Virus record (IMG/VR): IMGVR_UViG_3300040985_001881
Span: 1-41,523 of that record
Length of the DNA: 41,523 nucleotides
DNA from: a virus
Taxonomy: Duplodnaviria; Caudoviricetes
Strand: one strand, 5' to 3'
Positions 1,679 through 41,523 of this stretch are shown piece by piece. How positions within the stretch are numbered: position 1 is the first letter of the stretch; each line of letters begins with the position of its first letter. The notes beneath the pieces were generated by a model. That model worked only from the letters and a program-made list of their open reading frames with translations, had not been told where the DNA came from and did not search any database. Position numbers and translations under genes: made by a program.

Positions 1679-4030
1679 ATGGACGAGCGAATCCCTCTCT
1701 CAATTTCCTCAGACCAGCTCGCGCTCGAAAGCGAGATGGCAAAGAGAGGGGTTGACCGTTACCGCTCCAGTGTGAATGAATCCGCAAGCAAGGGCCGGGT
1801 CTCCATAACGGGGCCCGGTCGTCAGCTTGTCGCGGACTCTGTTGGTGGCCTAGCAAAGGCACTGACGAAGTGGATGAAGGCCGCGAAGGAAAGCCCGGGG
1901 ATGCGGGTCGGTGCACTCAAGTTGCTCGACCAGCTCCGAGCCCCCGACATCGCAGCGATCGCCGTGCAGTCCATGCTCGACGCATCGGTGAAGGCCAAGA
2001 AGCGGAGCACCACAATTTGCGATATTGCAACGCTACTACGTGACGAGGCCACGCTGAAGGAATTGAAGCGACAGCACGCGCCACTATTCCGACGGCTCCA
2101 AGGATTCCAAGTGCCAAGGCACATGCGAACCACGGTCGCGAACAGATGGCGGAAGGAAGACCTATGGGATTACAAGGTCCCACTACGCACCGACCAGATG
2201 CAGGCGGGGCTAGTTGTGTTTGAATTGGCGATGCAGACGACGGACCTATTCCGGGTCGAGGTGCTGACGAAGAGGAACCGCCCGACCTACCTACTCACGC
2301 TTCAGCCAGGGGTGACGGAGTGGATGGAAGAGATGCACGAGAAGCGCGAGGCGCTCAGCCCGATCTACCTACCCATGGTGCAGGAGCCGGGAGAGTGGGG
2401 AGTCGGCAAAGTGGGCGGCTACCGATCGAACATGGCCCGCCGCAAGCCGCTATGCCGAGTGCAGCGCAAGGGACACGTCGACACGATGAGGGATGCGGAG
2501 ATGCCCCACATCTATCGGGCCGTGAACCTAGCGCAGGAGACACCGTGGAGAGTCAACAGCACCGTCTACGAGGTGGCGCGGGAGCTATGGGAATGCAACG
2601 CCCAGGTTGCGGGGTTCCCCGACAGGGACCAGCCAGAGCTACCGCCCAAGCCAGACGAGGAGGACGAAGAGCAGATGAAGGCTTGGAAGTCCACCAAGAC
2701 CGACGCGCTTGAACGCTACCGAGCAGAGGGCAGCGCAAGGCTCCGCCACCTTCGGACGTTGGAGCTCGCGCACCGCTTCAGCGGAAAAACGTTTTGGTAT
2801 CCGCACTTCCTGGACTTCCGGGCGCGGATGTACCCGACCCCCGCGTGGCTCAACAACCAGGGGCCCGACTTCGCCAGAGGCTTACTCGAGTTCGCCCGAT
2901 CCTCCCGGGTCGAGCACGGTTCACCAGAGGCAGAGCGATTCGAAGAGTACGGCGCCAGCCTCTACAAGGGCCCGATCCCGGACGGTCTGATCGAAGCCGT
3001 GGGGGAGGACCCCCTCAGTTGCCTAGCTTGGACGAAAGCGGACAAGCCGTGGCAGTTCCTCGCGTGGGCGCTCGACGCTTGGGCGTGGAGAGAGGAGGAG
3101 GGCCACCCGATCCGGGTTCCTGTCTGCGCGGACGGGTCGAACAACGGGCTCCAGATCTACGCCTTGCTCATGGGGGACGAGGCGCTCGCCCGCGAGACGA
3201 ACGTGCTACCGGGGCCCAAGCAGGATCTATACCAGAAGGTCGCGGACAAGGCCTGGGAGAGGGTGCTGCGCGATCCCAGCGATCAGGCTCGCAAGTGGCG
3301 GGAGTTCCTGCCCGATGGGCTGCCCAGGAAAGCCACGAAGGGCATCGTCATGCCAAGCCCCTACGGCATCAAGAAGCACTCGGCCGCGGGCTCCCTGCGC
3401 GACTGGATGCTTCAGCACCAGCTCGCTATCGGCGAGAGGCCATGGGGCCACGCCACCTTCGCGCCCGCAAACTTCCTGAATGAGATCGTGTGGGCAGAGA
3501 TGCAGGCGCTGATCGAGCCCGCATCGACGTGCATGGACTGGCTTCGATCCGTCGCCGATGCCTGCGAATCCGTGCGCTGGACGAACCCGGCAGGCTTCCC
3601 CATCACCCAGGACTACCCGAGGCAAAAGCCCGTACACGTGCGGGTTTTCATTGCAGACGTGCCGAAGACCGTCCACCCAAATCGGACCCTGCACCAGACT
3701 TCAGAGGCCAAGCAGCGCGACGGGCTACCCCCCAATTTCGTGCACTCCCTGGATTCCGCCGCGCTGATGCTGACCATGGGGAGGTGCGCAGACCGCGGGG
3801 TGAGGGACTTCGCCATGGTGCATGATAGCTACGGATGCCCCGCTGGGGATGCCGTCACCATGGCCCAGGCGCTTCGCGAGACCTTCGCGGAGATGTTCCA
3901 AGAAAACCTACTAGAGACCTTCCACCGCGAGGTGAGCCACTATGCGGGAGGCGCGGACATCCCAGAACCGCCCGCCCGTAGGGGGCTCGACCCGTCCGTC
4001 GTCCTACAATCAAAGCACTTCTTCGAATGA
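1679..4030 (+). CDS. Single-subunit T7/T3-type DNA-directed RNA polymerase (gp1-like)
   Basis: LPMVQEP, DFRARMYP, QGPDFARGLL, motif A ADGSNNGLQ, motif B RKATKGIVMPSPYG, PNFVHSLDS, motif C MVHDSYG, C-terminal SKHFF (T7 SDFAFA). Confidence 0.97.
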   Translation: MDERIPLSISSDQLALESEMAKRGVDRYRSSVNESASKGRVSITGPGRQLVADSVGGLAKALTKWMKAAKESPGMRVGALKLLDQLRAPDIAAIAVQSMLDASVKAKKRSTTICDIATLLRDEATLKELKRQHAPLFRRLQGFQVPRHMRTTVANRWRKEDLWDYKVPLRTDQMQAGLVVFELAMQTTDLFRVEVLTKRNRPTYLLTLQPGVTEWMEEMHEKREALSPIYLPMVQEPGEWGVGKVGGYRSNMARRKPLCRVQRKGHVDTMRDAEMPHIYRAVNLAQETPWRVNSTVYEVARELWECNAQVAGFPDRDQPELPPKPDEEDEEQMKAWKSTKTDALERYRAEGSARLRHLRTLELAHRFSGKTFWYPHFLDFRARMYPTPAWLNNQGPDFARGLLEFARSSRVEHGSPEAERFEEYGASLYKGPIPDGLIEAVGEDPLSCLAWTKADKPWQFLAWALDAWAWREEEGHPIRVPVCADGSNNGLQIYALLMGDEALARETNVLPGPKQDLYQKVADKAWERVLRDPSDQARKWREFLPDGLPRKATKGIVMPSPYGIKKHSAAGSLRDWMLQHQLAIGERPWGHATFAPANFLNEIVWAEMQALIEPASTCMDWLRSVADACESVRWTNPAGFPITQDYPRQKPVHVRVFIADVPKTVHPNRTLHQTSEAKQRDGLPPNFVHSLDSAALMLTMGRCADRGVRDFAMVHDSYGCPAGDAVTMAQALRETFAEMFQENLLETFHREVSHYAGGADIPEPPARRGLDPSVVLQSKHFFE

Positions 4031-4347
4031 ACTACACAATCAGCGACTCCAGAGCCGTCTATCGGACCCTTAGAGCCCTACGCCTAGCCGTCACCAGGCG
4101 CGAGCAGTCCGAAACCCTGGGAGAGGCACGCGCCCACAGGCTGCAGATCGTAAAGCCGGAACGATCGAACCATGGCTTCCTACTCGTGAACGAGGCCGGC
4201 GACCTCCTTTGCAATTCGGAGGGCAGGTTTCACAGCTACAGCAGCGCCACGTCGGCCAAGCGGGCACGGGCCTACCTGGGCGGGCAAATCAAAGGCGGCA
4301 GGCTCGCCCCGCTCACCCAGATTGAGTCAAAGCTGGTCGATCAATAG
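4027..4347 (+). CDS. Hypothetical protein
   Basis: ATGA overlap with RNAP stop; 106 aa. Confidence 0.55.
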   Translation: MNYTISDSRAVYRTLRALRLAVTRREQSETLGEARAHRLQIVKPERSNHGFLLVNEAGDLLCNSEGRFHSYSSATSAKRARAYLGGQIKGGRLAPLTQIESKLVDQ

Positions 4348-4407
4348 GCCAGGCTTATCAACAGAACTTACTTGGATAAGTGCTACTTACGGAGATAGCG
4401 ACGAAAA

Positions 4408-4692
4408 ATGTCCGACCCAAAAGGTAACGAAGAGGAGCCCCTCCCCCTTGCGCTGCAGAACCTTCTCGACCGAGAGATGCCGCAGCGGGAGGAAGCGGGG
4501 CCTGATCCCTATGTCGACGACGACCTGATCGGGGCCCTTGAGGGGCGATTCCCAGAAATGATCCCGGGTGACAACCTGGGGCTTGGCCCGATCCAGCGAT
4601 ACCTTGGGCGCCGGGACGTTGTGCTATTCATCAAAGACATCTACAGCCAGCAGGAGAAATCCAATGTGCGGAAGCGGACCCAAACCGGGTGA
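4408..4692 (+). CDS. gp6.5-like small protein
   Basis: LIGALEGRFP...LGRRDVVLFIK pattern typical of the small gene ahead of the portal in T7-like podoviruses; synteny; ggaga upstream. Confidence 0.6.
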   Translation: MSDPKGNEEEPLPLALQNLLDREMPQREEAGPDPYVDDDLIGALEGRFPEMIPGDNLGLGPIQRYLGRRDVVLFIKDIYSQQEKSNVRKRTQTG

Positions 4693-4879
4693 GATTGAAG
4701 TCGGTACATCCGACGCTATTCTCGCGGAGCAGAGGAAAAAGAACCTCAGCCGCCCCACCGCACGAGAAGCTACCGCCTTTGAGATCGAGGCCCCCGCAGC
4801 ACAGAAGGCCCGACAGACACTCGCCGCCCGATTGGGCGTGCAGCAGCTCAGAAGCTCATTCCTCAACACCACCAAGTAG
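4664..4879 (+). CDS. gp6.7/7.3-like small virion protein, copy 1
   Basis: Starts MCGSGP (T7 gp6.7 starts MC); position before the portal; paralog of 4881-5078. Confidence 0.7.
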   Translation: MCGSGPKPGEIEVGTSDAILAEQRKKNLSRPTAREATAFEIEAPAAQKARQTLAARLGVQQLRSSFLNTTK

Positions 4880-4880
4880 A

Positions 4881-5078
4881 ATGTGTGGCTCAGGACCGGA
4901 CACGCGCACCGCCGAGGACCATGCAAACAGGCTAAAGGCCGTCACCCCAGCGCCCCCGTCTGAGCGCCAGGAGACCGCGAAAGAGATCAAGCCGGTTGAG
5001 GGGCTACGCAAGCGGCAGACATTGGCAGCTCGCTTGGGAGTCCAGCAGCTTCGCCGGGGATTCACCAATCCAAACTAG
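4881..5078 (+). CDS. gp6.7/7.3-like small virion protein, copy 2
   Basis: Starts MCGSGP; shares RQTLAARLGVQQLR with copy 1; abuts the portal ATG. Confidence 0.7.
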   Translation: MCGSGPDTRTAEDHANRLKAVTPAPPSERQETAKEIKPVEGLRKRQTLAARLGVQQLRRGFTNPN

Positions 5079-6650
5079 ATGAACGAAAGCGCAGTTGCCG
5101 AGATGGAGCCGAAGAAGGTTTCCGACAGCGAAGGCCCCGCAGCAATCGCATGGGGAACGCTCCAGATGGCGCAGCGCCCCTACCTCTCCAAGGCTCAGGA
5201 GGTCTCGTCACTGACGATCCCCTTCCTGATACCGCCAGACGGGGCCACGGGCTCCACAGAGCTCCCTACGCCCTATCAGGGTGTCGGTGCAGAGGGGGTA
5301 AATAACCTAGCATCGAAGTTCGTTCTGACCCTATTCCCGCCGTCTGGGCCGTTCTTCCGCTTGGTCGCATCGCCGTCCACGATTCGGGAGCTCGGAGAGG
5401 AGGAGGGCGCCGACCCCGAGAAGGTCGTCGAGGAGTTCAACGCTAGAATTTCGGTGATGGAGCAGGAGATCCAGGCGGAGATCGAGTCGAAATCGCTCCG
5501 CCCGTTGCTCTTCACGTGCTTCCGCCACCTGATCGTGGGCGGCAATTACCTGATCCGATGGCAGAACGGCAAGCCCCGCGGATTCGGGATGCCCCATTTC
5601 AGGATCAAGCGCGACCGCTCAGGGACAATCCTCTGGATCATTACCCGGGAGGTGATGACCCGCTCAGCACTCCCGGATGGCGTCACAGCCCCCAAGGGCA
5701 AGGACAGCGTAGAGCTATTCACCGCAGCGCACCGCCAACCGGACGGGACCTACCGTCTCTGGGAGGAGGTCGGCAAGCGGATTTCGAACAAGGACACGGT
5801 GACGGAGGACAAGCTCCCCTACATCGCACCGACGCTGTTCGACCTAGACGGCGAGAGCTACGGGCACGGGCTGGGCGAACACTACCTGGGCGACTTGGTT
5901 TCGCTGGAGGCTCTCCGCCGCGCTGGCGTTCTAGGATCGGCAGCCGCTTCGCACATCCTGTTTCTGGTCAACCCCAACGGGTTCACGAAGGTCTCGGATC
6001 TGCAGGGGGCTCGCACGGGATCCTACGTTCCAGGCTTGGCATCGGATGTCGAGGCGCTCCAGCTCAACAAAAACGGCGATTTCGCATTCGCGACCAGCCT
6101 TCACGACAGCATCGAGCGGAAGCTCTATCGCGTCTTCCTGCTGGCGACGGCCGTGCAGCGAGACGCGGAGCGCGTGACCAAGGCCGAGATCCAGTTCATG
6201 GCCCAGGAGATCGAAGCAACTCACGGGGGGACCTACTCCCTGATGACGACTCAGCTCCAGTTGCCCTTGGCCCGAATGGTCATGGCAGACATGGTGAAAG
6301 CCGACAAGCTGCCAGAGCTTCCCGAAGAGGACGTGATCCCCAAGGTCATCACCGGCCTAGAGGGACTGGGACGCTCGGCAGAACTGGACCGCCTACGAAC
6401 GATGCTCTCGGTGGCCGTAGAAACCCTGGGCGTAGAGCTCGTCACCCGACGCATCAAGCCGGGGAACATCCTCACAAGGCTCGCAGCGTCCACAGGCGTC
6501 GACTCCACGGGAATGTGGTTCTCAGACGAAGAGATCGCGCAGCAAGATCAACAAGCACAACAGCGTGCGCTTCTGGAAAAGCTAGGGCCGCCAGCAGTCG
6601 GTGGGGCGGCTGGGCCCCTAGCACAGAACGCCGTTGAAACCCTCGGATAG
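5079..6650 (+). CDS. Portal / head-tail connector (T7 gp8-like)
   Basis: LTIPFLIP, TPYQGVGAEGVNNLASK, LFPPSGPFF, GESYGHG, QRDAERVTKAEI, TGLEGLGR; 523 aa. Confidence 0.96.
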   Translation: MNESAVAEMEPKKVSDSEGPAAIAWGTLQMAQRPYLSKAQEVSSLTIPFLIPPDGATGSTELPTPYQGVGAEGVNNLASKFVLTLFPPSGPFFRLVASPSTIRELGEEEGADPEKVVEEFNARISVMEQEIQAEIESKSLRPLLFTCFRHLIVGGNYLIRWQNGKPRGFGMPHFRIKRDRSGTILWIITREVMTRSALPDGVTAPKGKDSVELFTAAHRQPDGTYRLWEEVGKRISNKDTVTEDKLPYIAPTLFDLDGESYGHGLGEHYLGDLVSLEALRRAGVLGSAAASHILFLVNPNGFTKVSDLQGARTGSYVPGLASDVEALQLNKNGDFAFATSLHDSIERKLYRVFLLATAVQRDAERVTKAEIQFMAQEIEATHGGTYSLMTTQLQLPLARMVMADMVKADKLPELPEEDVIPKVITGLEGLGRSAELDRLRTMLSVAVETLGVELVTRRIKPGNILTRLAASTGVDSTGMWFSDEEIAQQDQQAQQRALLEKLGPPAVGGAAGPLAQNAVETLG

Positions 6651-6662
6651 GAATAGGTAGCC

Positions 6663-7490
6663 ATGTCCCAAGTACAACGAACAGAGGTCCCCGTCGCTGA
6701 AGAGCCAGACGGCGAACCGAACGAGAACCCTTCACTCCTCGGAGAGCTAGAGGCCGACCAGGAGCAGCTCGGAGGCGAAGAGCCCGAGACCATCGAGATC
6801 CCCGAGAAGTTCCAGAACGAAGACGGGACGGTGAATCAGGACGCGCTCCTGAAAAGCTACCTCGAGTTAGAGAAGGGCGGCACCAAGGAACCAGAGCCAG
6901 AAGCCGAGGCGGTGCCGGAACTCAAGATCCCTGAAGGCGCGGATCAGGATGCGATCTTCAACGAGAATCTAGAACGCTGGGGCAACGACCTGCTCGACGG
7001 TGGGGACTTCAAACCGGAGACCCGCGCAGAGATGCGCAAGGCGCACAACATCAGTGACGCCTACATCGACGAGATTCGAGACGGCCGCATGGCACGCGCA
7101 CAGCTCAACGCCCGCGAGGTCCACGACATGGTGGGGGGCTCTGAGCAGTTCGACCAGATGATGACCTGGGCAGCGAAGAACCTAGGGCGCGAGCAGGCAA
7201 CGAACTTCCTAGCAGAGGTGGACCTGGCGAAGCGCAACAGGCAGGACGCCGCGCTCAAGGTCAAGATCGACGGGATGCAGGCTCAATGGAAGTCAGCCAC
7301 CGGTCGCGGATGGGCACCGGAGCTCACAGGCGACGACCCCGCAGGCGAGACCATCAAGCCCTTCAAGTCGATGGCTGAAATGCAGAAGGTGCAGGCCAGC
7401 GAGGAGTACCGCAGCGGAGATGAAGCCTTCCAGCGCGAATTCAACATCCGGCTGAAGAAGTCCATGGATCAGAAGGTCCCGGGCTTCTAG
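6663..7490 (+). CDS. Capsid scaffolding protein (T7 gp9-like)
   Basis: Acidic N-terminus, PEKF...LLKSYLELEK, VGGSEQFDQMMTWA, C-terminal FKSMAEM...EYRSGD; lies between portal and capsid. Confidence 0.92.
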   Translation: MSQVQRTEVPVAEEPDGEPNENPSLLGELEADQEQLGGEEPETIEIPEKFQNEDGTVNQDALLKSYLELEKGGTKEPEPEAEAVPELKIPEGADQDAIFNENLERWGNDLLDGGDFKPETRAEMRKAHNISDAYIDEIRDGRMARAQLNAREVHDMVGGSEQFDQMMTWAAKNLGREQATNFLAEVDLAKRNRQDAALKVKIDGMQAQWKSATGRGWAPELTGDDPAGETIKPFKSMAEMQKVQASEEYRSGDEAFQREFNIRLKKSMDQKVPGF

Positions 7491-7514
7491 CACAAGGGAC
7501 TACACCCCCCCCAT

Positions 7515-7790
7515 GAGGGCGCACCGTGAGCTTGACTCCGGGGCGCCCTCTCTCCATACACCCGTGCCGCTTTGTAGACCAATCGACCGCACGGGAAACG
7601 AATGTCTTGCACAGGACAAAAACGCCGCACATAGCTAGTTGCGTAATAAAAACGCTAGGAGAGTCCGGGTCACCGGGGAGCTCTCCCAGAACAACCAAGT
7701 CAGCACGCCCGAGTAGCTCGCGGCCCCCCACGGGGGATAACCGGACGGTAGCTCAGCTAGGCAATCGCGACGAGGTTTGACTGAAGGCTG
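7515..7790 (+). ncRNA. Candidate structured RNA / 5' leader of the major capsid gene (chain of hairpins)
   Basis: Stems GAGGGCGC/GCGCCCTC, CCCGTGC/GCACGGG, TGTCTTG/CAGGACA, GGAGAG/CTCTCC, CGAG/CTCG, CCCC/GGGG, TAGC/GCTA separated by A-rich linkers; no credible ORF. Confidence 0.45.
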
Positions 7791-7811
7791 AGAAGAAACG
7801 GAGAACACTCC

Positions 7812-8810
7812 ATGGTTACCACGATTTCAGGCATCACCAATCTTGGTGAAAACAATGGTGACGGCGCCACCTCAGGATTTGACGCGCTATTCCTCAAGAA
7901 GTTCGGAGGCGAGGTCGCTACCTCCTACGGACACAACTTGGTTCTCATGCCCCGCGTGCGACAGAAGACCCTCAAGGGTGGCAAGAGCTACACCTTCGGG
8001 GCGATCGGCCGCACCACGGCTACGCACCACGTCCGAGCCCAAGTGGTTCGTGACGCTCCCTACGTGGGAGAGATCACCCTCGGCGAGCGAATCATCTTCC
8101 TGGACCGTCCGATCGTCGCTGAGGCGTTCACGGACCAGTTTGAAGAGTTCGTGAACCACTTCGACGTTCGGGGTCCCATTGCCGACGAGCTCGGCGCTGC
8201 AATCTCCGAGTTGATCGAAGACCAGCTGATGCGCCTCTTGGTCATCGGCAGCGACTCCACCGCTGGACCCGTTGCGGACCAGCCAGGCGGCAACGACATG
8301 GTTTACCCCAATGCAGGCACCAACGGTGCCGACTTGGTTGAAGCCATCAAGGAGCAGGCGCTCTACTGGAACAACAACCGAGTTCCGAAGGCCGGGCGCT
8401 TCTGTATCGTGCCTCCCACCCAGTACCAAATGCTGGCAGAGCGCACGGACTTCCACTCCATGGACATCAACAACGGCAGAAACGGCTCCCTACGGGAAGG
8501 CGAAATCGGTCGGATGTACGGAATGGACATCCTCGAAAGCACCCTGGTTCCCTCGACGGACACCTCGTCCGATGACGCACCGGACTACGGCGACAACGGT
8601 TTGCAGAACGACTACCGAGTCGATGCTGCGGATTGCGTCGGCGTGTTCGGCACCCCGCGAGCCCTGGGCGCTGTCCAGATCGGCGGAGTGATGATCGAAT
8701 CGGAGTACGAGCGCAAGGACAAGGGTACTTGGTTCGACGCTTCCAAGATCTTCGGCGCCGGAGTCTTGCGAGAGTCCGATTGCGGCTCCGTTCGCACGCT
8801 CGCTATCTAA
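7812..8810 (+). CDS. Major capsid protein (T7 gp10-like)
   Basis: ALFLKKFGGEV, GGKSYTF, HFDVRGPIADELG, NNRVPKAGRFCIVPPTQY, G-MDILES, GAGVLRE; GGAG SD. Confidence 0.96.
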   Translation: MVTTISGITNLGENNGDGATSGFDALFLKKFGGEVATSYGHNLVLMPRVRQKTLKGGKSYTFGAIGRTTATHHVRAQVVRDAPYVGEITLGERIIFLDRPIVAEAFTDQFEEFVNHFDVRGPIADELGAAISELIEDQLMRLLVIGSDSTAGPVADQPGGNDMVYPNAGTNGADLVEAIKEQALYWNNNRVPKAGRFCIVPPTQYQMLAERTDFHSMDINNGRNGSLREGEIGRMYGMDILESTLVPSTDTSSDDAPDYGDNGLQNDYRVDAADCVGVFGTPRALGAVQIGGVMIESEYERKDKGTWFDASKIFGAGVLRESDCGSVRTLAI

Positions 8811-8815
8811 TCCAC

Positions 8816-8850
8816 AGGCCCTCTACCGCTTGGTAGGGGGCCTCTTTTTC
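8816..8850 (+). terminator. Intrinsic terminator after the capsid gene (T-phi position)
   Basis: AGGCCCTCTACC-GCTT-GGTAGGGGGCCT hairpin followed by CTTTTTC. Confidence 0.9.
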
Positions 8851-8870
8851 TCACACACACGGAGTAACGA

Positions 8871-9464
8871 ATGGCCGCTGTCGCAACGAAGCTTGAATCA
8901 GTCAACAAGATGTTGGCCGTGACGGGATACATGCGGGCGACCACTCTCACCTCTCCAACGCGGGCAGAGCTCATCACCGCGGAGCAGGTGCTCGACGAAG
9001 TGGACCGCGAGGTCCAGCAAGAGGGCTGGCACTTCAACACCACGTACAACGAGAGCAAGGACGAGGCCGGTGGCACCATCCCGCTAGGCTCTGACATCTT
9101 CAGCATCAGCCAGTCGAGCGGCAGCGACAAGCCCGGGAACATCGCGCCCAAGACAGAGGACTACTCGATTCGATCGGGGCTCGTCTTCAACCACAGCACG
9201 GGACTGACGACAGGCTTCACAGCAGCAGTCACTCTGAACATCGTCTACAAGATCGACTTTGCTGACTTGCCCCAGTACGCCGTCGCATTCATCACAGCAA
9301 AGGCGGCGCGGCAGTTCTACATGAACAGCAGGGGCAAGGACTCACAGCTCGCCCAAGAGGGCGAGGTACGAGCGCGAGCAGCGTTCATGCAGGAGGAGGC
9401 ACGGCTCACACGCTTCAACGCCTTCCGCAATCCTGATATGTCCTGGGTCGAATACTACAGATGA
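8871..9464 (+). CDS. Tail tubular protein A / adaptor (T7 gp11-like)
   Basis: TKLESVNKML, EVQQEGWHFNT, FADLPQ..FITAKAARQF. Confidence 0.93.
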   Translation: MAAVATKLESVNKMLAVTGYMRATTLTSPTRAELITAEQVLDEVDREVQQEGWHFNTTYNESKDEAGGTIPLGSDIFSISQSSGSDKPGNIAPKTEDYSIRSGLVFNHSTGLTTGFTAAVTLNIVYKIDFADLPQYAVAFITAKAARQFYMNSRGKDSQLAQEGEVRARAAFMQEEARLTRFNAFRNPDMSWVEYYR

Positions 9465-14149: not shown

Positions 14150-14151
14150 AC

Positions 14152-28579: not shown

Positions 28580-28656
28580 GCACAAACGGTAGCTCGTAAG
28601 CACCACTGACGTCAAGGATGGATGGATCGAAGGATCACAACCCAGAAGGAGACCCT

Positions 28657-30790: not shown

Positions 30791-30830
30791 GTGACTGACG
30801 ACAACGGGCGCAAGCCCCCAACCAGCAAGG

Positions 30831-31517: not shown

Positions 31518-31720
31518 AGCACAGCAAACAAGAGCTAGCCCGAGCCTCATGGGCGGACCTACTGAGGGACGCACGCACAGCACGCCACCAGGCGCAGCAC
31601 GGGCCATTCTATCCGCCCACGGTCACCGCTAGCGACCTGAACGCATACGCGCAAGAGTGCAGGAACGCGGCCAAGGGATACAGCGCAATCGTCCGCAGCA
31701 TGAAGGAGCCCAAAGCATGA
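31514..31720 (+). CDS. Hypothetical protein
   Basis: GAGGTG SD; ATGA overlaps at both ends. Confidence 0.7.
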   Translation: MKHSKQELARASWADLLRDARTARHQAQHGPFYPPTVTASDLNAYAQECRNAAKGYSAIVRSMKEPKA

Positions 31721-33135: not shown

Positions 33136-33323
33136 ACCCCCAACGATTGAACAAGCTCCGCGCATGGGGCAAACGAGACACGCAGGGCAAGCCGACGCCC
33201 AGCACCACGCTAGTCGCAATCGCCCGAGTGCTCAGCGGCCACGAATGGAACGCCAACACCAACGCGCAAATTGCCGACATTCTGCGGGGCGCAGGCTTCC
33301 AAATCGAGGAGCCCGACGCATGA
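33132..33323 (+). CDS. Hypothetical protein
   Basis: ATGA overlaps at both ends; 63 aa. Confidence 0.65.
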   Translation: MNPQRLNKLRAWGKRDTQGKPTPSTTLVAIARVLSGHEWNANTNAQIADILRGAGFQIEEPDA

Positions 33324-33418
33324 GCTGCCAACGTGAACCAGTCCAGAACGCCAACGGAGGCGGCTGGGGATTGCCCCTTGCCATTTTTACCATCGTCCTA
33401 CTTACCTTCCTGATCTGA
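33320..33418 (+). CDS. 32-aa membrane peptide
   Basis: AGGAG SD; ATGA overlap; TM LPLAIFTIVLLTFLI; TGATG coupling to the next gene. Confidence 0.55.
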   Translation: MSCQREPVQNANGGGWGLPLAIFTIVLLTFLI

Positions 33419-33858
33419 TGAAACGCTACACAATCATATCGTGCGGAGGCTTGAAGCAAGCCGGAACGCACCCCGCCGAAGAGCTCTACACGTCGAGCAA
33501 TTTCCGAATGACACTAGCCGCAGCGGAGACCATCGCCGACGAGGTGCTGATTCTCTCCGCTAAGCATGGACTACTACGCCGCTCCCAAGTGGTCGACTGG
33601 TATGACCTGCGAATAGGCGACCCGGGAATGATCTCAGTCCGAGACCTAACGCGCCAGGTCGAGCAACTAGACACCCCGCGCAGCATCACCACGCTACTAC
33701 CGAAAGCCTACGCCCAGCTCATGGACAGAGCGGCCATGCTCGCAGGGCGAGACATTCTAGCGGGATGTCACGTCCACCTATTCGAGGGCACCCGAGGAAT
33801 CGGCGACCAAAGAGCGATATGCAAAGGCTTGATCGACAACCAGGAGCCCGCCCAGTGA
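33418..33858 (+). CDS. DUF6884-like protein
   Basis: IISCGGLK...PAEELYTS...VLILSAKHGL...YDLRI...GIGDQ. Confidence 0.75.
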   Translation: MKRYTIISCGGLKQAGTHPAEELYTSSNFRMTLAAAETIADEVLILSAKHGLLRRSQVVDWYDLRIGDPGMISVRDLTRQVEQLDTPRSITTLLPKAYAQLMDRAAMLAGRDILAGCHVHLFEGTRGIGDQRAICKGLIDNQEPAQ

Positions 33859-34226
33859 GCGCCATGCGATATTGGTGGATCCAGCCGACAGACCGGAAGC
33901 TAGGCGGGTCGGAGCTAGGACGCGGAACACAAGAGGAGGCGGAGAAATTCGCCAGATCGTGGACCGAGTACGAGGCGAAGCGCACCGCCACAAAGAATCA
34001 AAAACGGTTCAGCTTTCAGGAGGCAATAGCCGCCCCGGTCTACCGCACAAAGGAGATCGTCGAACAGTGGCAGATTGACGACTTGAAAGCCTGCCGCCAT
34101 ATCACGATCAAAGACCTAGCCGACGCAAACCAGGCCGAGGAACTACGCCAGGAACAGATGCGCCAAATCCGCGCAGCAAGACAGGCATCGGGCGCGAGCC
34201 CGGACCTATTTGAAGAACTTTACTAA
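33855..34226 (+). CDS. Hypothetical protein
   Basis: AGGAG SD with GTGA overlap. Confidence 0.65.
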   Translation: MSAMRYWWIQPTDRKLGGSELGRGTQEEAEKFARSWTEYEAKRTATKNQKRFSFQEAIAAPVYRTKEIVEQWQIDDLKACRHITIKDLADANQAEELRQEQMRQIRAARQASGASPDLFEELY

Positions 34227-34252
34227 ACCCCAAACCCAACAGGACGCAACCA

Positions 34253-35440
34253 ATGAAACACACACACGAAGGAACCCGGGAAATCATGGAAGGCACGCAC
34301 GCCACCTATTCACCCGAGGACAACAAACTACGATTCTACCCAGCGGGTCGGCTCGACTCGGAAGACTACGCAACCGCGAAGGCTTGCGGGTTCCGATGGG
34401 CCCCGCGCCAGGAGCTATTCGTCTGCCCCGCTTGGAATCCCCAGGCGGAGGACTTGCTAGAGATGTGGTGCGGAGAGATCGGCGACGAGGACACCACCCT
34501 AGGAGAGCGAGCAGCCCAACGCGCCGAGCGTTTCGAAGGCTACAGCGACAACCGAGCACGCGATGCAGAGCAGGCGCACGACGCAGTGCAGGCAATCACC
34601 GAGGGAATCCCACTAGGGCAACCCATCTTGATCGGCCACCATTCCGAGAAGCGAGCACGGAAGGACCAGGAGAAGATAGAGCGAGGCATGGACCGAGCCC
34701 TAAAGGCTTGGAAGACCTCAGAATATTGGGAGTGGAGAGCCAAAGGCGCAATCGCAGATGCCAAGTACAAAGAGCGCCCCGAGGTGAGAGCCCGCAGGAT
34801 CAAACGCCTAGAGGCAGAGCGAAGGAAGCGCGTAGCGAGCTACACGCCGCACGGCCCCGAGTTCATGCAGGAACAAAGCGCGTACCTGGGGCGCCACGAG
34901 GACGGCACGGGGAAATATTGCTGGGAAGAGCACGGCCACGAGACCAAGTGCGACAACTGCAAAGCAGTCCCGCACGTGATGGTAAACAATAAGGGAATCG
35001 GATCGCACCCCGCGCCAGTCGCCAGCCTACCAGCTCGCGAACGCGCACAGGCGCGACACGTCGAGCACCTCGACAGACGCCTAGCCTATGAGCGGACCAT
35101 GCTAGGAGAGCAGGGGGCACTTGACTTGTTGAAGCCAAAGCCGCGCCCCAAGCAGCCCCCGATTCTTAACTACCAGGCCGAGACGATTACCGTCTGGCAA
35201 CGGTACAACCGAGAGCAGCCGGAGATTCTCACTCAGCAGGCAATGACCCGCGCCGAATACGCGAAGGTTTACAAAGACAATAAATGGTGCGTTCTCAGCG
35301 AAGACAAGACCCACCGGATTCGCTTCGCAAGCCTAGGAGGATTCCGCGGGCCCCGGGTTTGCGTGTTCCTCAGCGATTCGAAAGCGCACCCAGTCCCGGC
35401 CCCAGTCGAGCCCGACCAGGCCGAGGAGGTGACAGCGTGA
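34253..35440 (+). CDS. DUF3560-domain protein
   Basis: ATYSPEDNKLR, GFRWAPRQELF, IPLGQPILIGHHSEKRARKD, RARRIKRLEA. Confidence 0.9.
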   Translation: MKHTHEGTREIMEGTHATYSPEDNKLRFYPAGRLDSEDYATAKACGFRWAPRQELFVCPAWNPQAEDLLEMWCGEIGDEDTTLGERAAQRAERFEGYSDNRARDAEQAHDAVQAITEGIPLGQPILIGHHSEKRARKDQEKIERGMDRALKAWKTSEYWEWRAKGAIADAKYKERPEVRARRIKRLEAERRKRVASYTPHGPEFMQEQSAYLGRHEDGTGKYCWEEHGHETKCDNCKAVPHVMVNNKGIGSHPAPVASLPARERAQARHVEHLDRRLAYERTMLGEQGALDLLKPKPRPKQPPILNYQAETITVWQRYNREQPEILTQQAMTRAEYAKVYKDNKWCVLSEDKTHRIRFASLGGFRGPRVCVFLSDSKAHPVPAPVEPDQAEEVTA

Positions 35441-35673
35441 AAATTCACAACGAGCTCCCCGAGAAGTGCCCCGAATGTGGCGTCGAGGACTACAGCCCAA
35501 CGCGCTGCATCGACGGCACCGCATACGATGGAGCGTTTGAGCCGCACTGCCAGGCGCACCAGCCCGAGAAAGACCCAGACGCGCAATCGGTGCGGTTGAT
35601 CTGCCCCGAATGCACGCACACCCTACGGATTTCCGTCGAACTAGCCGACAAAGCAGAGCGAGGCAACCTATGA
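35437..35673 (+). CDS. Small Zn-ribbon protein
   Basis: GGAGG SD; GTGA overlap; two CPEC motifs. Confidence 0.7.
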   Translation: MKIHNELPEKCPECGVEDYSPTRCIDGTAYDGAFEPHCQAHQPEKDPDAQSVRLICPECTHTLRISVELADKAERGNL

Positions 35674-36278
35674 GCCGCCAAGACTTGCGCGAGAAGATGG
35701 AGGCCATGCAGCAGAGCCGAAAGCAAGGCGTGCAAATCGCCGTAGCCCCGACGCTTTACCCGACACCGGACCACGTGGCGGAGATGGTAGCCGACTACCT
35801 CGAGTTGTTCCGAGGATGCACGGTCCTCGAACCGTCAGCGGGAACGGGGCAGCTCATAAAGGTGATCCGCGAACGCATGAACAGCGCCCGGATTGTCGCG
35901 GTAGAGCTCGCGCACGGCCTAGCGCAAATCTTGCATCAGATGCCCGTGCGTACCCTCAACGTGGGAACGGTGATTCACTGTGACGATTTCCTAGCCCGAG
36001 AATGGAGACCGACAGGCACCAACCCCGGCACGAAGTTTGATCGGGTCGCGATGAATCCGCCATTCAACAACCAGGCCGACGTGAAGCACATTCGCCACGC
36101 AGTCGAGCAGCTCGCGGACGGTGGCATCTTGGTAGCGATCTGTGCAGACGGGCCGCGCCAGGAGAAAGCCTTTCCAGAATCCGAGGGGTGGGAGTGGCTT
36201 GAACGGCTACCCTCCGGCACCTTCGCAGGAACGAACGTAAGAACCGCCCTAATCAGATGGAGCAAGCCCCGTGAATAA
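35670..36278 (+). CDS. Class I SAM-dependent (N6-adenine-type) methyltransferase
   Basis: LYPTP, VLEPSAGTG, DFL, FDRVAMNPPF, LPSGTF. Confidence 0.9.
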   Translation: MSRQDLREKMEAMQQSRKQGVQIAVAPTLYPTPDHVAEMVADYLELFRGCTVLEPSAGTGQLIKVIRERMNSARIVAVELAHGLAQILHQMPVRTLNVGTVIHCDDFLAREWRPTGTNPGTKFDRVAMNPPFNNQADVKHIRHAVEQLADGGILVAICADGPRQEKAFPESEGWEWLERLPSGTFAGTNVRTALIRWSKPRE

Positions 36279-36489
36279 GACAGAGAAGCCAACGATCGGA
36301 CGCCCGAACAAGCTAGGCGAATCGGTACGAGTGGACGCACACCTACCGAAGGCCCTAGTCGACCGACTGATAATCCTACAGCGTGCCCCGTGGCTTGTGG
36401 CGCAGTGTGCGCCCGCGAAGGTGACGCGCTCCGACGCGCTCCGGGTGGCTCTAGAGTTCGGACTCGACCGAGCGGAGACGCCTCCCTAG
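36271..36489 (+). CDS. Ribbon-helix-helix transcription regulator
   Basis: GRP...VRVDAHLPKALVDRL...TRSDALRVAL; last gene before the terminators. Confidence 0.7.
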   Translation: MNKTEKPTIGRPNKLGESVRVDAHLPKALVDRLIILQRAPWLVAQCAPAKVTRSDALRVALEFGLDRAETPP

Positions 36490-36523
36490 GCAGAATTGCA
36501 TTAGAGTGAGCCTTGCGATTGAC

Positions 36524-36561
36524 AGACCCGGAGGGTACAAGTACCCCCGGGTCGTTTTTGT
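36524..36561 (+). terminator. Intrinsic terminator of the early cassette
   Basis: GACCCGGAGGGTAC-AA-GTACCCCCGGGTC followed by GTTTTTG. Confidence 0.75.
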
Positions 36562-36651
36562 TGCATCCTTCGACCCGTCACCCTTCAGAGCCTCGGCCCT
36601 GCGGGGTGTCTTTTTTGGCGTGGAACTTTTGATTTTCCATGGCGGAATTCA

Positions 36652-36680
36652 TTGGACGGGGGGGGCTCGTAACCTACACT
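36652..36680 (+). promoter_or_regulatory. Candidate sigma70-type promoter for the recombination block
   Basis: TTGGAC-N17-TACACT upstream of 36722. Confidence 0.4.
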
Positions 36681-36721
36681 CACCTAGCAAGAGTCCCTAA
36701 AAACCTAGCCAACCTGACAGG

Positions 36722-36964
36722 ATGCAACACAACCAGGACAGCGAACCTAATTCGCAACTCAGCACCGAGGCGTTGATCGCACTGATCCGCCCATTCATCG
36801 AGCCCGGACCTATGCGCCGCGGCAATCACATGCTGATCCTTCTGAGCGCCGAGCACTTCGAGAATGTGCGGGCCCTATGGGAGGAGATCATGGGCGAACT
36901 TTCCAAGGAGTCGCTCAAGATGGGCGAGCCGATCCCGCAACTTTCAACACCGGACCAATTCTAA
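36722..36964 (+). CDS. Hypothetical protein
   Basis: 80 aa; TAATG coupling to the annealase gene. Confidence 0.55.
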   Translation: MQHNQDSEPNSQLSTEALIALIRPFIEPGPMRRGNHMLILLSAEHFENVRALWEEIMGELSKESLKMGEPIPQLSTPDQF

Positions 36965-38007
36965 TGCAGCTCTACACATGCAACGGGCAAACGTCCCAGC
37001 AAATCGCCGCCGCCCTTAACGGGTACTTCGCAGAAGCCGACATCCAATGGAAGCCCGACCGCTTCACAGGTGGAAAGCAGCCAGGCCCATGCAAAGCAAT
37101 CATGCTGGCATTCGTCGACAACCGCGCAATCATGGAGCGCCTAGACGAAGTGTGCGGCCCCGGCAACTGGCAGAGCGAGTGCATTCCGTGGGGCCCGAAC
37201 GCCGCGAAGTGCACACTATCGCTTCTGTTCGTGAGTGACCGCGAAGCCCAGTGGGTTTCACGTACCGACGTTTGCGAGAATTCGCAGGTGTCCCCCGTCA
37301 AAGGCGGAGTAAGCGGAGCCATGAAGCGAGCCGCCGCACAGTGGGGAATCGGTCGCTACCTGTACCACCTACCCGACGCATTCCTCCCAGCCACGAAGGA
37401 CGCAAACGGCAGAGGCAAGCTGGACAACTACGGGCAGCGCCCGCCAGTTCCCGCCAAGTTCCTGCCCGGAAATGAGCGCCCCCGACAACAGCCGGATTAT
37501 CCAGTCAAGCAGCCCGAACCCGTGGCGCAACCGCAGCAGCAGCGACAGCAGGCACCACAGCACATCAACGCCGAGCACGCTGGCAGCAGAGCAGAGGCCG
37601 AGGCACCAGCTCACGTACCGCAGCAGCAGGAACGCCCCGGCGCAGCCGGCCAGGGGGGCAAGCCGACATGGTGGGACAAGAAAAACCCGATGAAGGGACC
37701 TTGCCAGGGCATGACCTGGGGAGAAATCTCGCAGGGCAGCCCAGGCGGAAAGCGCGAAGAGTTCGCCACGTTCTATTGCAGCCTCGACCCGTACAAGGGG
37801 GAGCCGCGATGGCACGCATCAAACCTGGAAAGCTTGGAGGCCGCGAAGTATTGCCTCAAGGCGATTGGAGAGCGGGCGGGCAACCAGCCGCGCCCCGAGC
37901 CCGCAGAGGAACGCGAGTACGCACGGCCCGAGGATGTCGATTGGGATAGCCAGTCGCAGACAGAGGCACAGGAATGGGAACGAGAACTAGACGACACACC
38001 TTTTTAG
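36964..38007 (+). CDS. Rad52/Rad22-family (Sak-like) single-strand annealing protein
   Basis: LAFVDNRAIMERLDEVCGPGNWQ, WVSRTD, KGGVSGAMKRAAAQWGIGRYLY; acidic tail ELDDTPF. Confidence 0.92.
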   Translation: MQLYTCNGQTSQQIAAALNGYFAEADIQWKPDRFTGGKQPGPCKAIMLAFVDNRAIMERLDEVCGPGNWQSECIPWGPNAAKCTLSLLFVSDREAQWVSRTDVCENSQVSPVKGGVSGAMKRAAAQWGIGRYLYHLPDAFLPATKDANGRGKLDNYGQRPPVPAKFLPGNERPRQQPDYPVKQPEPVAQPQQQRQQAPQHINAEHAGSRAEAEAPAHVPQQQERPGAAGQGGKPTWWDKKNPMKGPCQGMTWGEISQGSPGGKREEFATFYCSLDPYKGEPRWHASNLESLEAAKYCLKAIGERAGNQPRPEPAEEREYARPEDVDWDSQSQTEAQEWERELDDTPF

Positions 38008-38016
38008 GAGCAACAC

Positions 38017-39216
38017 ATGGAACACCAAACAGAGCCAGTAGAAGTAGAAGCCGAGCCCATCATCATCGACACCATCGGAACGGAGGTGCTCGCGCCAAAG
38101 TACGCCGACGCCTACCTAGTCAACGCCGAGTCAGCGAAGAAGCTAGTCGAGCAGTACGAAGGCTTGACTATCGACGGCATCGAGGACACAGAAGGAGCCG
38201 CGAAGGTAAGCGCAGGCCGGAAGCACTTGAAGCGGTTGCGCAACGCCACCGAGAAGACGCGCAAGGAGCAGACCGCGCCAGCGATCAAGCACCAGAAGGA
38301 CGTGAACGCCTATGCGCGGGAGCTCGTGGGCGCGATGGAGCCCACAGAGAAGAAGCTTCAGGCGGAAGAGGCACGCATCGAGGCGTTGAGAATGGAAGCC
38401 GAACGCTTAGAGCGGGAGCGCAGGCAGCAGCTCCTCGACGAGCGAATGGACCAGCTCAACGCCGTCGAGGCCAAGTTCCCTATCGCAGCCGTGAGGGAGC
38501 TCGACGACGAGGCATTCGCCGCGCTACTAGGAGAGGCCACGGAGCTTTTCAACGTGCGCGAGGCAAAGAAGGCCGAAGAGGTTGCACGCCTCAAGGCCGA
38601 GCAGGAGGCAGAGCAACGCAAGCGCGACGAAGAGCACGCCGCAGCCGAGGCGAAGCGCCAAGAGGAAGCGGAGAAGCTACTAAAGGAGCGGGAGAAGGTG
38701 CTCCGGGAGCGGGAAGAACTCGCAGAGGAACGCGCAGCCATGGCGCGGGAGCGAGCAGCCGCCCAGGCGGAGCGCGACCAGCTCGCGGAGGAGAAAAAGC
38801 AGCGCGAGCATGAAGAAGCCGAAGCGGCGCGAGCGGCCGAGCCGGTGCCTACTCCGGCAGAGTCGCCAGCGGGAAGAGCCGCACGACTGGAGGACGCGGG
38901 CCTAACCGAGGAGGACGTAGCCGATACCATGCTGCCCCCCGACGACCTGGCCCGCGTTCCCCCTACAGATATGGACGAGTTCCCCGTGGCGCGGTGCCCC
39001 CAGTGCGGCACGCCTATGCACGGTGGCGGGTATTGCTACGAGTGCAGGCCCATGGATGAGCCCGAGACGATCAGCGCCAAGGAGCAGCAGCAGGCAATGC
39101 GTTACTTGCATTCCGTCTGCGCAATACCACTCCCCAGGACGACATGGGACGCGCAGATACAAGCCGCCGTTGTCTCGTTCTGCCGTGACGTGCAGCACAT
39201 CGCGGGAGTCCAGTAG
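38017..39216 (+). CDS. Long coiled-coil protein (DUF1351-like N-terminus) with Zn ribbon
   Basis: AGGAG SD; LTIDGIED...RKHLKRLRNATEKTRKE; E/A/R-rich coil; CPQCG...CYEC. Confidence 0.7.
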   Translation: MEHQTEPVEVEAEPIIIDTIGTEVLAPKYADAYLVNAESAKKLVEQYEGLTIDGIEDTEGAAKVSAGRKHLKRLRNATEKTRKEQTAPAIKHQKDVNAYARELVGAMEPTEKKLQAEEARIEALRMEAERLERERRQQLLDERMDQLNAVEAKFPIAAVRELDDEAFAALLGEATELFNVREAKKAEEVARLKAEQEAEQRKRDEEHAAAEAKRQEEAEKLLKEREKVLREREELAEERAAMARERAAAQAERDQLAEEKKQREHEEAEAARAAEPVPTPAESPAGRAARLEDAGLTEEDVADTMLPPDDLARVPPTDMDEFPVARCPQCGTPMHGGGYCYECRPMDEPETISAKEQQQAMRYLHSVCAIPLPRTTWDAQIQAAVVSFCRDVQHIAGVQ

Positions 39217-39218
39217 AC

Positions 39219-39593
39219 ATGCCGAAGGATGCAATAACCGACGAGCGGCTAGACCCAATCTATTCCCACCTCGCAGGCAAGGGGGTTCGGTTCTTCCGGC
39301 GCAAGCCAGGATGGAAAGGACGAGATCCCTTTTGGGACGAAGTGGAGCCGCGCCACGGGATGCTATGGCCGTTCAGTTCCGACGAGTCCAAGGGGGCGGA
39401 CGGTCTCTCACGCGCCCTAGCAGAGCGCCAGAGAGCGCAACGCGCCGAGCCGTGCACGCTGATCGAGACACCTATCCGGGTCCCGCTGGCGAGCCCGTGC
39501 GAACCGTGGGCGCTCGACCCGCCTATCGTCTACGTGGACGAGTGCTACATGAGCCGCACGGAGATCGAGTACCACCGCAGGAGGCGCTCCTGA
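39219..39593 (+). CDS. Hypothetical protein
   Basis: Starts 2 nt after the upstream stop; TGATG coupling downstream. Confidence 0.6.
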   Translation: MPKDAITDERLDPIYSHLAGKGVRFFRRKPGWKGRDPFWDEVEPRHGMLWPFSSDESKGADGLSRALAERQRAQRAEPCTLIETPIRVPLASPCEPWALDPPIVYVDECYMSRTEIEYHRRRRS

Positions 39594-40084
39594 TGGCAGT
39601 CGTCAACTACAACGAGCTCTTCGACTGGTTCACCATCGAGATCGAATCCTTCACGAAGGAGAACACGGCAATCATTCGCTTCTGGGGTCGAGCCCAAGAC
39701 CACATTGGAAACGACGCGAAGCGATGGAAGACCTGGGTTCGGAAGTGCATCAAGAGCGCGAATGGACGCAACGTCCACGACCGCGAGGGGTGTCTCTACT
39801 CCAGATTCAAGGACACGAAGCCCGCGGAGTTACCCAAACAAAGCGAACCACTAGCCAGAGCCATGAGCAACCAAACTCCAGAAGAAGCAGCCGAGCACAA
39901 GGCGCGAGCAGCTCGCGCACGTGCAGGCCGCGCCGACCCTATCCCGCCGTTCTTTCCGGCCATGCGCCTAGCGAAGGTGATCCCGATCGCGGACGCCATT
40001 AGCCAGGTGCAGGCGGAGTGGGTCAGGCAAGGCAAACCCTATCCCGAAGACTTCGACGAGGCGCCACTATGGCAGGCACAATGA
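39593..40084 (+). CDS. Hypothetical protein (possible replication-initiation factor)
   Basis: GGAGG SD, TGATG start; helical domain ending NVHDREGCLYSRFK; position within a lambdoid-like block. Confidence 0.55.
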   Translation: MAVVNYNELFDWFTIEIESFTKENTAIIRFWGRAQDHIGNDAKRWKTWVRKCIKSANGRNVHDREGCLYSRFKDTKPAELPKQSEPLARAMSNQTPEEAAEHKARAARARAGRADPIPPFFPAMRLAKVIPIADAISQVQAEWVRQGKPYPEDFDEAPLWQAQ

Positions 40085-40398
40085 GCTACGACCCGCAGGA
40101 CGAGAAGGCACGCAGGCTGAAAGACGAGGGCCCCGGGCTCTTCGACAACCAGCAGCGCAAGCAGCTCAGGCGATGCACGTCCGCACTAGGCAATGCGATC
40201 CTCGACTTCTGCCGAGTCAAGAAGACCTTCCACATGGATGAGCTTCAGCGGTGGGTGACGAGCAAAGTGCATTCCGCGCCGTCGAGCACCGACCGCGTGC
40301 TTCGCGAGCTCAGGAAGCAGGGGCAGCTCGACTACGAAGTCGTGTCGCGCAAGGATTCGCTCTACAAAATCACAGCCATTCACCACAAGACAGCATGA
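40081..40398 (+). CDS. Winged-helix DNA-binding protein
   Basis: FHMDELQRWV...APSSTDRVLRELRKQGQLDYEVVSR..LYKI. Confidence 0.7.
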   Translation: MSYDPQDEKARRLKDEGPGLFDNQQRKQLRRCTSALGNAILDFCRVKKTFHMDELQRWVTSKVHSAPSSTDRVLRELRKQGQLDYEVVSRKDSLYKITAIHHKTA

Positions 40399-40730
40399 AC
40401 GTAAGGCACGGATTCAAGCGCCACAAGTACGGGGTAAGCCCCAGGGAAAAGAGAACCGCAGACGGGATCCTCTTTGACTCGCAACTAGAGATGCGCGTCT
40501 ACAAAAGGCTCCAGCTAGAGAAGGCCGCAGGTGTTGTGCTCTTCTTCACGCGGCAGTCACCCTTCCACCTACCGGGAGGCGTGAGGTACGTCGTCGATTT
40601 CACCGTCTACTACACAGACGGAAGCGTGAAGTTCATCGACGCGAAGGGCATGGAGACTGCCGAATTCAAAACAAAGAAGCGCATGGTAGAGGCGCTATAC
40701 CCCATCGAAATCACCATCGTAAAGAAATGA
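40395..40730 (+). CDS. DUF1064-family PD-(D/E)XK endonuclease (resolvase candidate)
   Basis: HKYG...DGILFDSQLE...YVVDF...IDAKGMET.EFKTKKRM. Confidence 0.9.
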   Translation: MNVRHGFKRHKYGVSPREKRTADGILFDSQLEMRVYKRLQLEKAAGVVLFFTRQSPFHLPGGVRYVVDFTVYYTDGSVKFIDAKGMETAEFKTKKRMVEALYPIEITIVKK

Positions 40731-41523
40731 ACACCGACCAAAAGCTAGCCATCATCGAGGCCCGCAGCTCAATCAACAAGATCAACGAGACACTGGGCGA
40801 CGTGCTCGCCGTCGAGCGCATCGCAGCTCGTGATGAAAGGGGAGCCCCGCCGCAGCCGCCCGCAAGGCAGCGCCCGAAGCAGAGGGGCAGACGCAGGGCA
40901 CGACCAGCGCCGAAGCGCCAAAGGCGACGACAGGCAGAACCCGGGCGGGCATTCGAGTTGCGATACACCCCCCGCGAAGGCGCAGGGACCGCGCACCAGT
41001 ACCCGCCAGTCGTCAATGACTACATGGAGATGATCGTGGACGGGGTGGCAATGCGAATCTACTCCCAGAAGTGCGGGGACCTAGACGCTCAAATGGTCAC
41101 GTTCGCAGCCATCAACGGCTACCCGGGTCGAGGGTGCGCCTACTTCGAAGAGTTGCGCATCGACGTACCCGACAACGAGCCGTTCATTGTCAAGGGCAGG
41201 CACGTGATCCTCCCACGTGGGGCTCTGATCGAACGCTTCTGGACGGGACCGGATCGCAAGGAGGCTAGCGAGTGGGGGTGGGTCGATGACCCCCGCAAGA
41301 CTATGCCGTGGGGGCCGAGCGAAGCAGACCGCGCACTGATGAAGCCGCCAGGGATCAGCATCGGGCCCTATGAATTCCTATGGAAGTTCACATCCCTAAG
41401 CAACAGCCACGGAGGGTACGGAGTTGCGCCGTTCCACGGAGGCCCCGAGGACTGGCTCACGTGCAAGGAGGGGCGCGAGCTACGCGAGCGGGAGATGCTC
41501 ATGGAGATGCAGCGCCCTATCTC
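40727..41523 (+). CDS. 5' part of the ~550 aa junction-spanning hypothetical protein
   Basis: ATGA overlap with the DUF1064 stop; no stop to the window end; absent from the ORF track; continues in frame at position 2. Confidence 0.8.
   Translation, partial: MNTDQKLAIIEARSSINKINETLGDVLAVERIAARDERGAPPQPPARQRPKQRGRRRARPAPKRQRRRQAEPGRAFELRYTPREGAGTAHQYPPVVNDYMEMIVDGVAMRIYSQKCGDLDAQMVTFAAINGYPGRGCAYFEELRIDVPDNEPFIVKGRHVILPRGALIERFWTGPDRKEASEWGWVDDPRKTMPWGPSEADRALMKPPGISIGPYEFLWKFTSLSNSHGGYGVAPFHGGPEDWLTCKEGRELREREMLMEMQRPI
41426..41522. repeat. Terminal overlap, copy 2
   Basis: Identical to 2-98. Confidence 0.95.

Follow-up and report, generated by a model that had tools for sequence, protein, structure and literature searches.

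We analysed a 41,523-nt viral DNA (Duplodnaviria; Caudoviricetes), the whole of IMG/VR record IMGVR_UViG_3300040985_001881 (hereafter the window), and found that it belongs to a T7-like phage lineage without the T7 replication block that carries a lambdoid-type early block instead. This gene content and its layout are common to three complete genomes, and the replication block is kept in the sister genome. Replication by host enzymes is our best inference. With moderate confidence, we propose that host DnaB, DnaG and Pol III likely copy the phage DNA, and that a small initiation factor of the phage, possibly together with host DnaA, probably loads them at a phage origin. The clues to initiation come mainly from the relatives and less from the window itself.

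The T7-type character of the window lies in its transcription and virion genes, as the original prediction, made from the letters of the window alone, had claimed. The gene at 1679–4030 (+) encodes a T7-type single-subunit RNA polymerase (RNAP) of 783 amino acids (aa), which matches PHROG 414 (E 2e-171) and PF00940 and has intact catalytic motifs (D485, R550/K554/Y562 and H715-D716). Its top GenBank phage matches share ~30% identity with it, and among 103 RNAP homologs, 7 form a close group at 43–65% identity while the remainder, query aside, are at 34% or below. Genes for the portal, scaffold, capsid, tail tube A/B and internal virion proteins gp13–gp16 (5079–21482, +; PHROG 449, 1052, 267, 446, 457, 308, 805 and 6651; PF12236, PF21703, PF17212, PF25675 and PF24072) and for T7-type TerS and TerL, with one gene in between (21816–24418, +; PHROG 891, PHROG 38, PF22530), follow in T7 order across 5079–24418. 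The 937-aa gp15 equivalent was assigned via its position and clade homologs. T7-like phages have genomes of ~40 kb with nearly all genes on a single strand, and the window agrees with them in both respects. A codon-trained caller found 51 genes, 50 of them on the plus strand, and these cover 94% of the sequence, so that open reading frames (ORFs) do tile nearly the whole genome as predicted.

We found no T7-type replisome. Window ORFs were scanned against PHROG (56), Pfam (54) and NCBIfam (25), with 10 re-called ORFs scanned in addition, and none matched polymerase, primase, helicase, single-stranded DNA-binding protein (SSB), gp3, gp6, exonuclease, ligase or integrase families; the predicted lack of a family A polymerase, primase-helicase, gp2.5, gp3, gp6 and ligase is thus upheld by profile searches of these ORFs. 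Six-frame profile searches of the window gave no matches to PF00476 (DNA_pol_A), PF03796 (DnaB_C), PF13155 (Toprim_2), PF00589 (Phage_integrase) or PF13481 (AAA_25), and the same searches matched the first four of these in the related record G001, which served as a control. Profile searches were preferred because one-query searches miss divergent polymerases. This was the case at four loci outside the clade described below (L060, L171, L178 and L182), which we rejected as replisome-less. Genes were called at three of them, and each of these three has a ~750-aa ORF upstream that starts, by eye, like the exonuclease domain of a DNA polymerase.

Loci of four close relatives were compared, namely L069, L070 (partial), L149 (genome G002) and L031 (record G001). 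RNAP identity to the window is 68% for L070 (partial), 65% for L069 and record G403, 58% for L149/G002 and 56% for L031/G001. The RNAP-to-portal gap measures 1052 nt in the window, 920 nt in L069/G403, 1093 nt in L070 and 603 nt in L149/G002, compared with 8990 nt in G001, where the gene order is integrase, RNAP, gp2.5, RusA-like endonuclease, gp4, gp5, gp6 and portal. Neither the G001 gp2.5, gp4, gp5 and gp6 proteins nor the DNA_pol_A profile had a match in the two contigs of G002 or in G403. The G002 phage consists of contigs C167 and C240, whose ends share two 141-nt overlaps and thereby close into a 38,678-nt circle. G403, a record of 43,984 nt, has terminal repeats and encodes a tyrosine integrase. 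L069, which lies inside a 526,593-nt contig, is identical to G403 and is probably an integrated prophage, because of this identity to a record with terminal repeats and an integrase. The PF00589 integrase profile matched in G403 and G001, but neither the window nor the two G002 contigs gave a match. We did not adopt the label of the G002 metagenome-assembled genome as the phage host; in 401 genomes of its phylum, a portal search matched G002 and one distant genome. Single-protein IMG/VR scans for close relatives (portal, P0112 and the junction protein described below) found nothing.

A portal tree of 22 rows unites the four short-gap genomes in one clade (SH-aLRT 96) and places G001 as its sister (100); the next neighbour of this group likewise has the T7 block. 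An RNAP tree (52 rows, FastTree; partial L070 omitted) agrees with the portal tree. Because both the sister and the next neighbour keep the T7 block, the loss and replacement of the replisome is a derived state. Together with the layout common to the three complete genomes, these results support the chimeric lineage that the original prediction had inferred.

The claim that the genome closes on itself stood in part. Positions 2–98 are identical to 41426–41522, a 97-nt end repeat, and a 550-aa reading frame crosses the join uninterrupted by a stop. The outermost base, outside the repeat, is mismatched at both ends, and IMG/VR classes the record as 'linear' (completeness 99%). Because of the end repeat and the open frame, we read the window as most likely a complete circle of 41,424 nt. 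T7-like genomes are linear with fixed direct terminal repeats; the window assembly is circularly permuted. The mismatched end bases and the 'linear' class are also what a chimeric assembly, or a contig from which gp2.5–gp6 had been lost, might leave behind, and no seawater contig spans 29.5–31 kb, where a chimeric join had been considered. All four seawater runs contain near-identical short contigs to the left and to the right of 30 kb, with depth similarly low on both sides, mostly 2–3-fold (window 21524–41523), and 34 of 51 seawater contig records have at least 99% identity to this part of the window. Misassembly is very unlikely, because the short gap recurs in three independent assemblies and the early block in two other complete genomes, and we give a chimeric or truncated contig almost no weight.

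Upstream of the RNAP, the three complete genomes have a common order of Sak, coiled-coil protein, 163–170-aa protein, resolvase, ~550-aa gene and 83–87-aa gene. In the window, the conserved block opens with an 80-aa gene (36722–36964, +; 28% identity in G403), followed by the Rad52/Sak single-strand annealing protein (36964–38007, +; PF04098, E 1e-12; PHROG 1097; 43% in G002, 46% in G403) and a coiled-coil-rich protein (38017–39216, +; PHROG 16469, unknown; 32–45% in G002, 40% in G403). A 124-aa gene (39219–39593, +) is placed by position in the slot that a DUF1376 gene holds in G403, and the next gene encodes a conserved 163-aa protein (39593–40084, +; homologs of 163–170 aa at 23–27% in G002/G403), which has a four-helix N-domain and is a candidate for a factor that initiates replication. 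The block continues with a 109-aa probable winged-helix (wHTH) protein (40069–40398, +), whose provisional label comes with a weak NCBIfam S25e match (E 0.0045) and which has no counterpart in the relatives compared (G002, G403), and with a DUF1064 nuclease (40395–40730, +; PF06356, E 1e-14; PHROG 190, labelled Holliday junction resolvase; 60% in G002). The resolvase differs by genome: DUF1064 in the window, DUF1064 and RusA in G002, and RusA in place of DUF1064 in G403. Of the genes originally assigned at 36964–40730, Rad52/Sak and DUF1064 were confirmed, and the coiled-coil and wHTH proteins remained without a firm family match. The last gene before the RNAP encodes 83 aa (1424–1675, +; 40–44% identity in G002, G403 and L329, 83–87 aa in the complete genomes) and has no match in G001.

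Between the resolvase and the 83-aa gene lies the 550-aa junction protein (N-terminal part 40727–41523, +; C-terminal part 2–955, +), neither part of which has a family match. If the phage encoded an unrecognised polymerase, primase or helicase, this protein, which is of sufficient size and lacks a usable Atlas match, would be the most plausible candidate. We rate this as quite improbable: a regex scan (519 frames) detected none of the Walker A, PolA, PolB and prim-pol motifs in it, neither G002 nor G403 has a detectable homolog, and the ~550-aa protein of those two genomes also occurs in G001, whose replisome is normal. The G002, G403 and G001 genes are thus members of one family, a structural model of which was poor (pLDDT 45.6) and had no PDB match. 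Homology of the junction protein to this family was rejected as unproven (score −2.4 bits, shuffles up to 3.8); the two share a similar-looking motif by eye, and their halves are in register (hhalign E 0.11 and 0.046).

The original prediction had suggested priming by recombination or by RNAP transcripts. The relatives point more to an initiator and origin route, which we favour on three features of these genomes: a DUF1376 gene, triple repeats next to an early gene that is conserved, and a cluster of DnaA boxes. In G403, the DUF1376 gene (PF07120, E 7e-11; PHROG 'primosomal protein', E 1e-18) lies directly 5' of the 163-aa homolog. Triple repeats of 13 nt in G403 and 17 nt in G002 occupy the region of this slot (0 of 200 shuffles each). 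Repeats of the kind expected of an iteron origin near an initiator gene are present in G002 and G403 and absent from the window. The RNAP-to-gp6.7 gap of G002 (L149:2188–2280) holds five DnaA boxes in 93 nt; locus L149 has 6 boxes against 1.44 expected (0 of 200 shuffles), and the cluster is the sole such site among 293 loci.

Several results weigh against this reading. The DUF1376 gene, a candidate for an O-like initiator, was found in G403 only, the 124-aa protein in the window has no similarity to it, and the same slot of the window has no repeats above chance (139 of 200 shuffles equally good). For the 163-aa protein, a word-indexed search returned itself alone, Foldseek gave no viral match at E ≤ 0.001, no PDB sequence matched, and a DnaD-like fold match was tied with unrelated helical rows and not above them; none of 24 members of its family matched a replication family. 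No helicase loader (lambda P, DnaC-like) or helicase of its own was matched in the window by Pfam, PHROG or NCBIfam, though small divergent loaders could be missed. The junction protein is unassigned, with no usable Atlas match and no relative in IMG/VR. The DnaA-like boxes of the window are degenerate and, at 2 against 3.0 expected genome-wide, occur at chance level, and the corresponding gap has no DnaA boxes in G403 or L070. Finally, the RNAP frame of the G002 phage (C240 24554–26707) contains a single internal TAG, which may reflect an error, a pseudogene or readthrough.

The primary origin of T7 lies just after gene 1. The window has a 60-nt gap (4348–4407) where the sister G001 has gp2.5–gp6, a candidate origin or late-promoter region with two DnaA-box-like 9-mers. 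These form an inverted pair at 4355–4363 (+, 1 mismatch) and 4371–4379 (−, 2 mismatches), with a local P of 0.004 and both together in 0 of 5000 trials. The pair and the G002 box cluster both lie directly downstream of the RNAP gene, which would suit an origin primed by an RNAP transcript in the gap, where DnaA would load DnaB, Pol III would extend and the 163-aa protein would have another job. There are precedents for both steps: in the E. coli ABC primosome, one DnaA box is enough for DnaB loading once the DNA is open (PMC6127211), and the T7-related mitochondrial RNAP primes replication (PMC11346463). The missing boxes in G403 and L070 speak against such an origin, the boxes that exist could instead regulate or titrate DnaA, and G002 has its triple repeats elsewhere too. 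Nor was a phage promoter identified: a scan for multi-copy RNAP promoters in non-coding DNA (14-mers, 2 mismatches, at least 3 regions) found none in the window or the 4 relative loci. We regard an RNAP-primed, DnaA-assisted origin as unlikely though worth considering. The same holds for a broader version, in which the four-protein replisome was swapped for a bacterial-style origin, with a DnaA-box array in its former place opened or primed by phage RNAP, a new small initiation-protein family, and host DnaA, DnaB and Pol III replicating a T7-type genome; this we put forward as speculative. Because no multi-copy promoter was found and the G002 frame contains a TAG, RNAP activity in the lineage is itself presumed, and its service to the late genes is suggested by gene position.

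Recombination-dependent replication would do without a dedicated origin, as Sak would anneal terminal repeats or invading ends and PriA-type host restart proteins would load the replisome. Sak and a resolvase are present in all three complete genomes, and the window has no clear initiator or repeats, both of which fit. We nevertheless consider it improbable, as neither PHROG nor Pfam identified an exonuclease partner for Sak in the window, origin-like repeats adjoin a conserved gene in two relatives, and lambdoid phages carry annealases besides an origin.

Under the favoured reading of host replication from a phage origin, host RNA polymerase would first transcribe the early block, with the phage RNAP gene at its end. 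The 163-aa protein would then act like lambda O and recruit the host helicase, together with a protein that binds DNA: DUF1376 in G403 and perhaps the wHTH protein in the window. Sak and the DUF1064 or RusA resolvase would produce and trim concatemers for the T7-type terminase, replacing T7 gp2.5 and gp3, which fill these roles in T7. The phage RNAP would mainly transcribe the adjoining downstream virion genes.

The surprise attached to such a genome had been overrated, since polymerase-less T7-like groups, namely the cyanopodoviruses MPP-C and clade S and the marine Autographiviridae group AG-11, are described in PMC9860041, PMC12695635 and PMC12361551. AG-11 resembles the window in having the RNAP just upstream of virion genes and in lacking a DNA polymerase (DNAP), T7 SSB, exonuclease and endonuclease; it differs in having its own helicase and primase upstream of the RNAP, where the window has neither (PMC12361551). 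Of three AG-11 records from that list that we examined, the two that extend far enough upstream (L219 and L243) carry an SF2 helicase, a primase and, like the window, DUF1064 upstream of the RNAP. Identity between AG-11 and the window is 26% for the RNAP and 27% for the portal, and a single clade of the window group and AG-11 was rejected (approximately unbiased test, p 0.0105) in the portal tree, which samples 2 of 24 listed AG-11 rows and 2 kin. S-SRP02 of clade S likewise has an RNAP and no DNA polymerase or primase-helicase, but keeps SSB, RusA and exonuclease downstream of the RNAP, according to its accounts in PMC8790148 and PMC12695635; in the window the whole block is gone and a Sak/DUF1064 block lies upstream. 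MPP-C phages have no DNA polymerase, and a host polymerase was proposed for them, but they retain primase/helicase, SSB and exonuclease (PMC9860041). The window has neither the SSB nor the exonuclease that MPP-C and clade S retain.

G403 (IMGVR_UViG_3300005590_000017) is listed under the marine Autographiviridae group AG-5 in supplement 2 of PMC12361551, which means that the lineage had already been assigned to a group, and its id is missing from the gene-presence table of that paper; the passages there on DNAP loss name AG-1.2 to 1.4 and AG-11 and do not mention AG-5. The same source no longer counts the T7 replication block as core of Autographiviridae. The typical block of that family (gp2.5, gp4, gp5 and gp6) is absent from the window. 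Lambda O/P and P22-type replication regions offer the closer likeness for the early block: they share the annealase and the RusA or DUF1064 resolvase, and in G403 also a DUF1376 gene with internal repeats and an integrase. They differ in that no P/DnaC/DnaB gene was seen, that the window lacks DUF1376, repeats and integrase, and that the virion, terminase and RNAP of the lineage are of T7 type. The window is thus T7-like by RNAP and virion and lies outside AG-11, MPP-C and clade S. Its lineage lost the T7 replisome independently of the published groups and more completely than they did. Our search of CC-licensed PMC and bioRxiv literature found no paper on a T7-like phage in which polymerase, primase, helicase and SSB are all missing and a Sak/initiator block is present. 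Separately, in Planctomycetota chromosomes (L198, L200, L202 and L203), Sak4, an SF2 helicase and a ~770-aa gene lie upstream of a T7-like RNAP and portal. These loci form a branch of their own and apparently represent another replacement of the replisome.

The remaining features of the window are described in genome order. A 106-aa gene follows the RNAP (4027–4347, +; 33–35% identity in L069/G403 and L070) and has no match in G002. The small pre-portal genes (4408–5078, +), which we take to be positional equivalents of T7 gp6.7 and gp7.3, have homologs in G001 and every clade member; the second is doubled in the window (4664–4879 and 4881–5078, two MCGSGP... copies), and the relatives were called with one copy. 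Upstream of the capsid gene, a hairpin at 7722–7744 is kept in all 5 aligned clade sequences, with a 4-bp stem, a YACG loop and compensatory changes in 2 of 4 pairs. It has no Rfam match; in a pattern scan it occurs near scaffold/capsid genes of other T7-like contigs, with T7-type virion genes at 9 of 40 matching loci. Four tandem paralogs of 117–153 aa after TerL (24415–26041), possibly virion decoration proteins, match no family but recur in G001, G002 and G403. No endolysin or holin family matched across the window ORFs in Pfam or PHROG; small hydrophobic ORFs at 26248–29290 are where lysis genes might sit. The single minus-strand gene (27995–28579, −; 195 aa) has no family match.

The largest non-coding stretch, a gap in the gene calls at 29503–30830, is the likely early control region. 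Short imperfect repeats around GGACGATA at 30627–30776, its most AT-rich part, are possible operators; as a triple repeat they are not above chance, and no significant triple repeat was found in 30450–30830. The sigma-70 consensus does not occur in 28000–41523, the window has no Rfam or tRNA matches, and its cumulative skews gave no clear origin signal. The variable early genes that follow (30831–36489, +; PHROG and Pfam matches) include DUF7007, a C5 cytosine methyltransferase, DUF6884, DUF3560, a second methyltransferase and an RHH-like gene; in the parts of G002 and G403 that were compared, they have no homologs.

T7-like phages are the textbook example of self-sufficient replication, and the lineage described here provides a close natural comparison between G001, which has the full T7 block and an RNAP 56% identical to that of the window, and three complete genomes from which the whole block is missing. 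PMC9860041 does not settle how the members without a polymerase draw on host enzymes; our analysis provides concrete candidates in the 163-aa family, the DUF1376 gene, the iteron-like repeats and the DnaA-box array. In conclusion, the RNAP and virion module can be borne by quite different replicons, of the T7 type, the AG-11 SF2 helicase/primase type and a probably host-dependent type, which is relevant to phage taxonomy and to surveys in which DNA polymerase serves as the marker.

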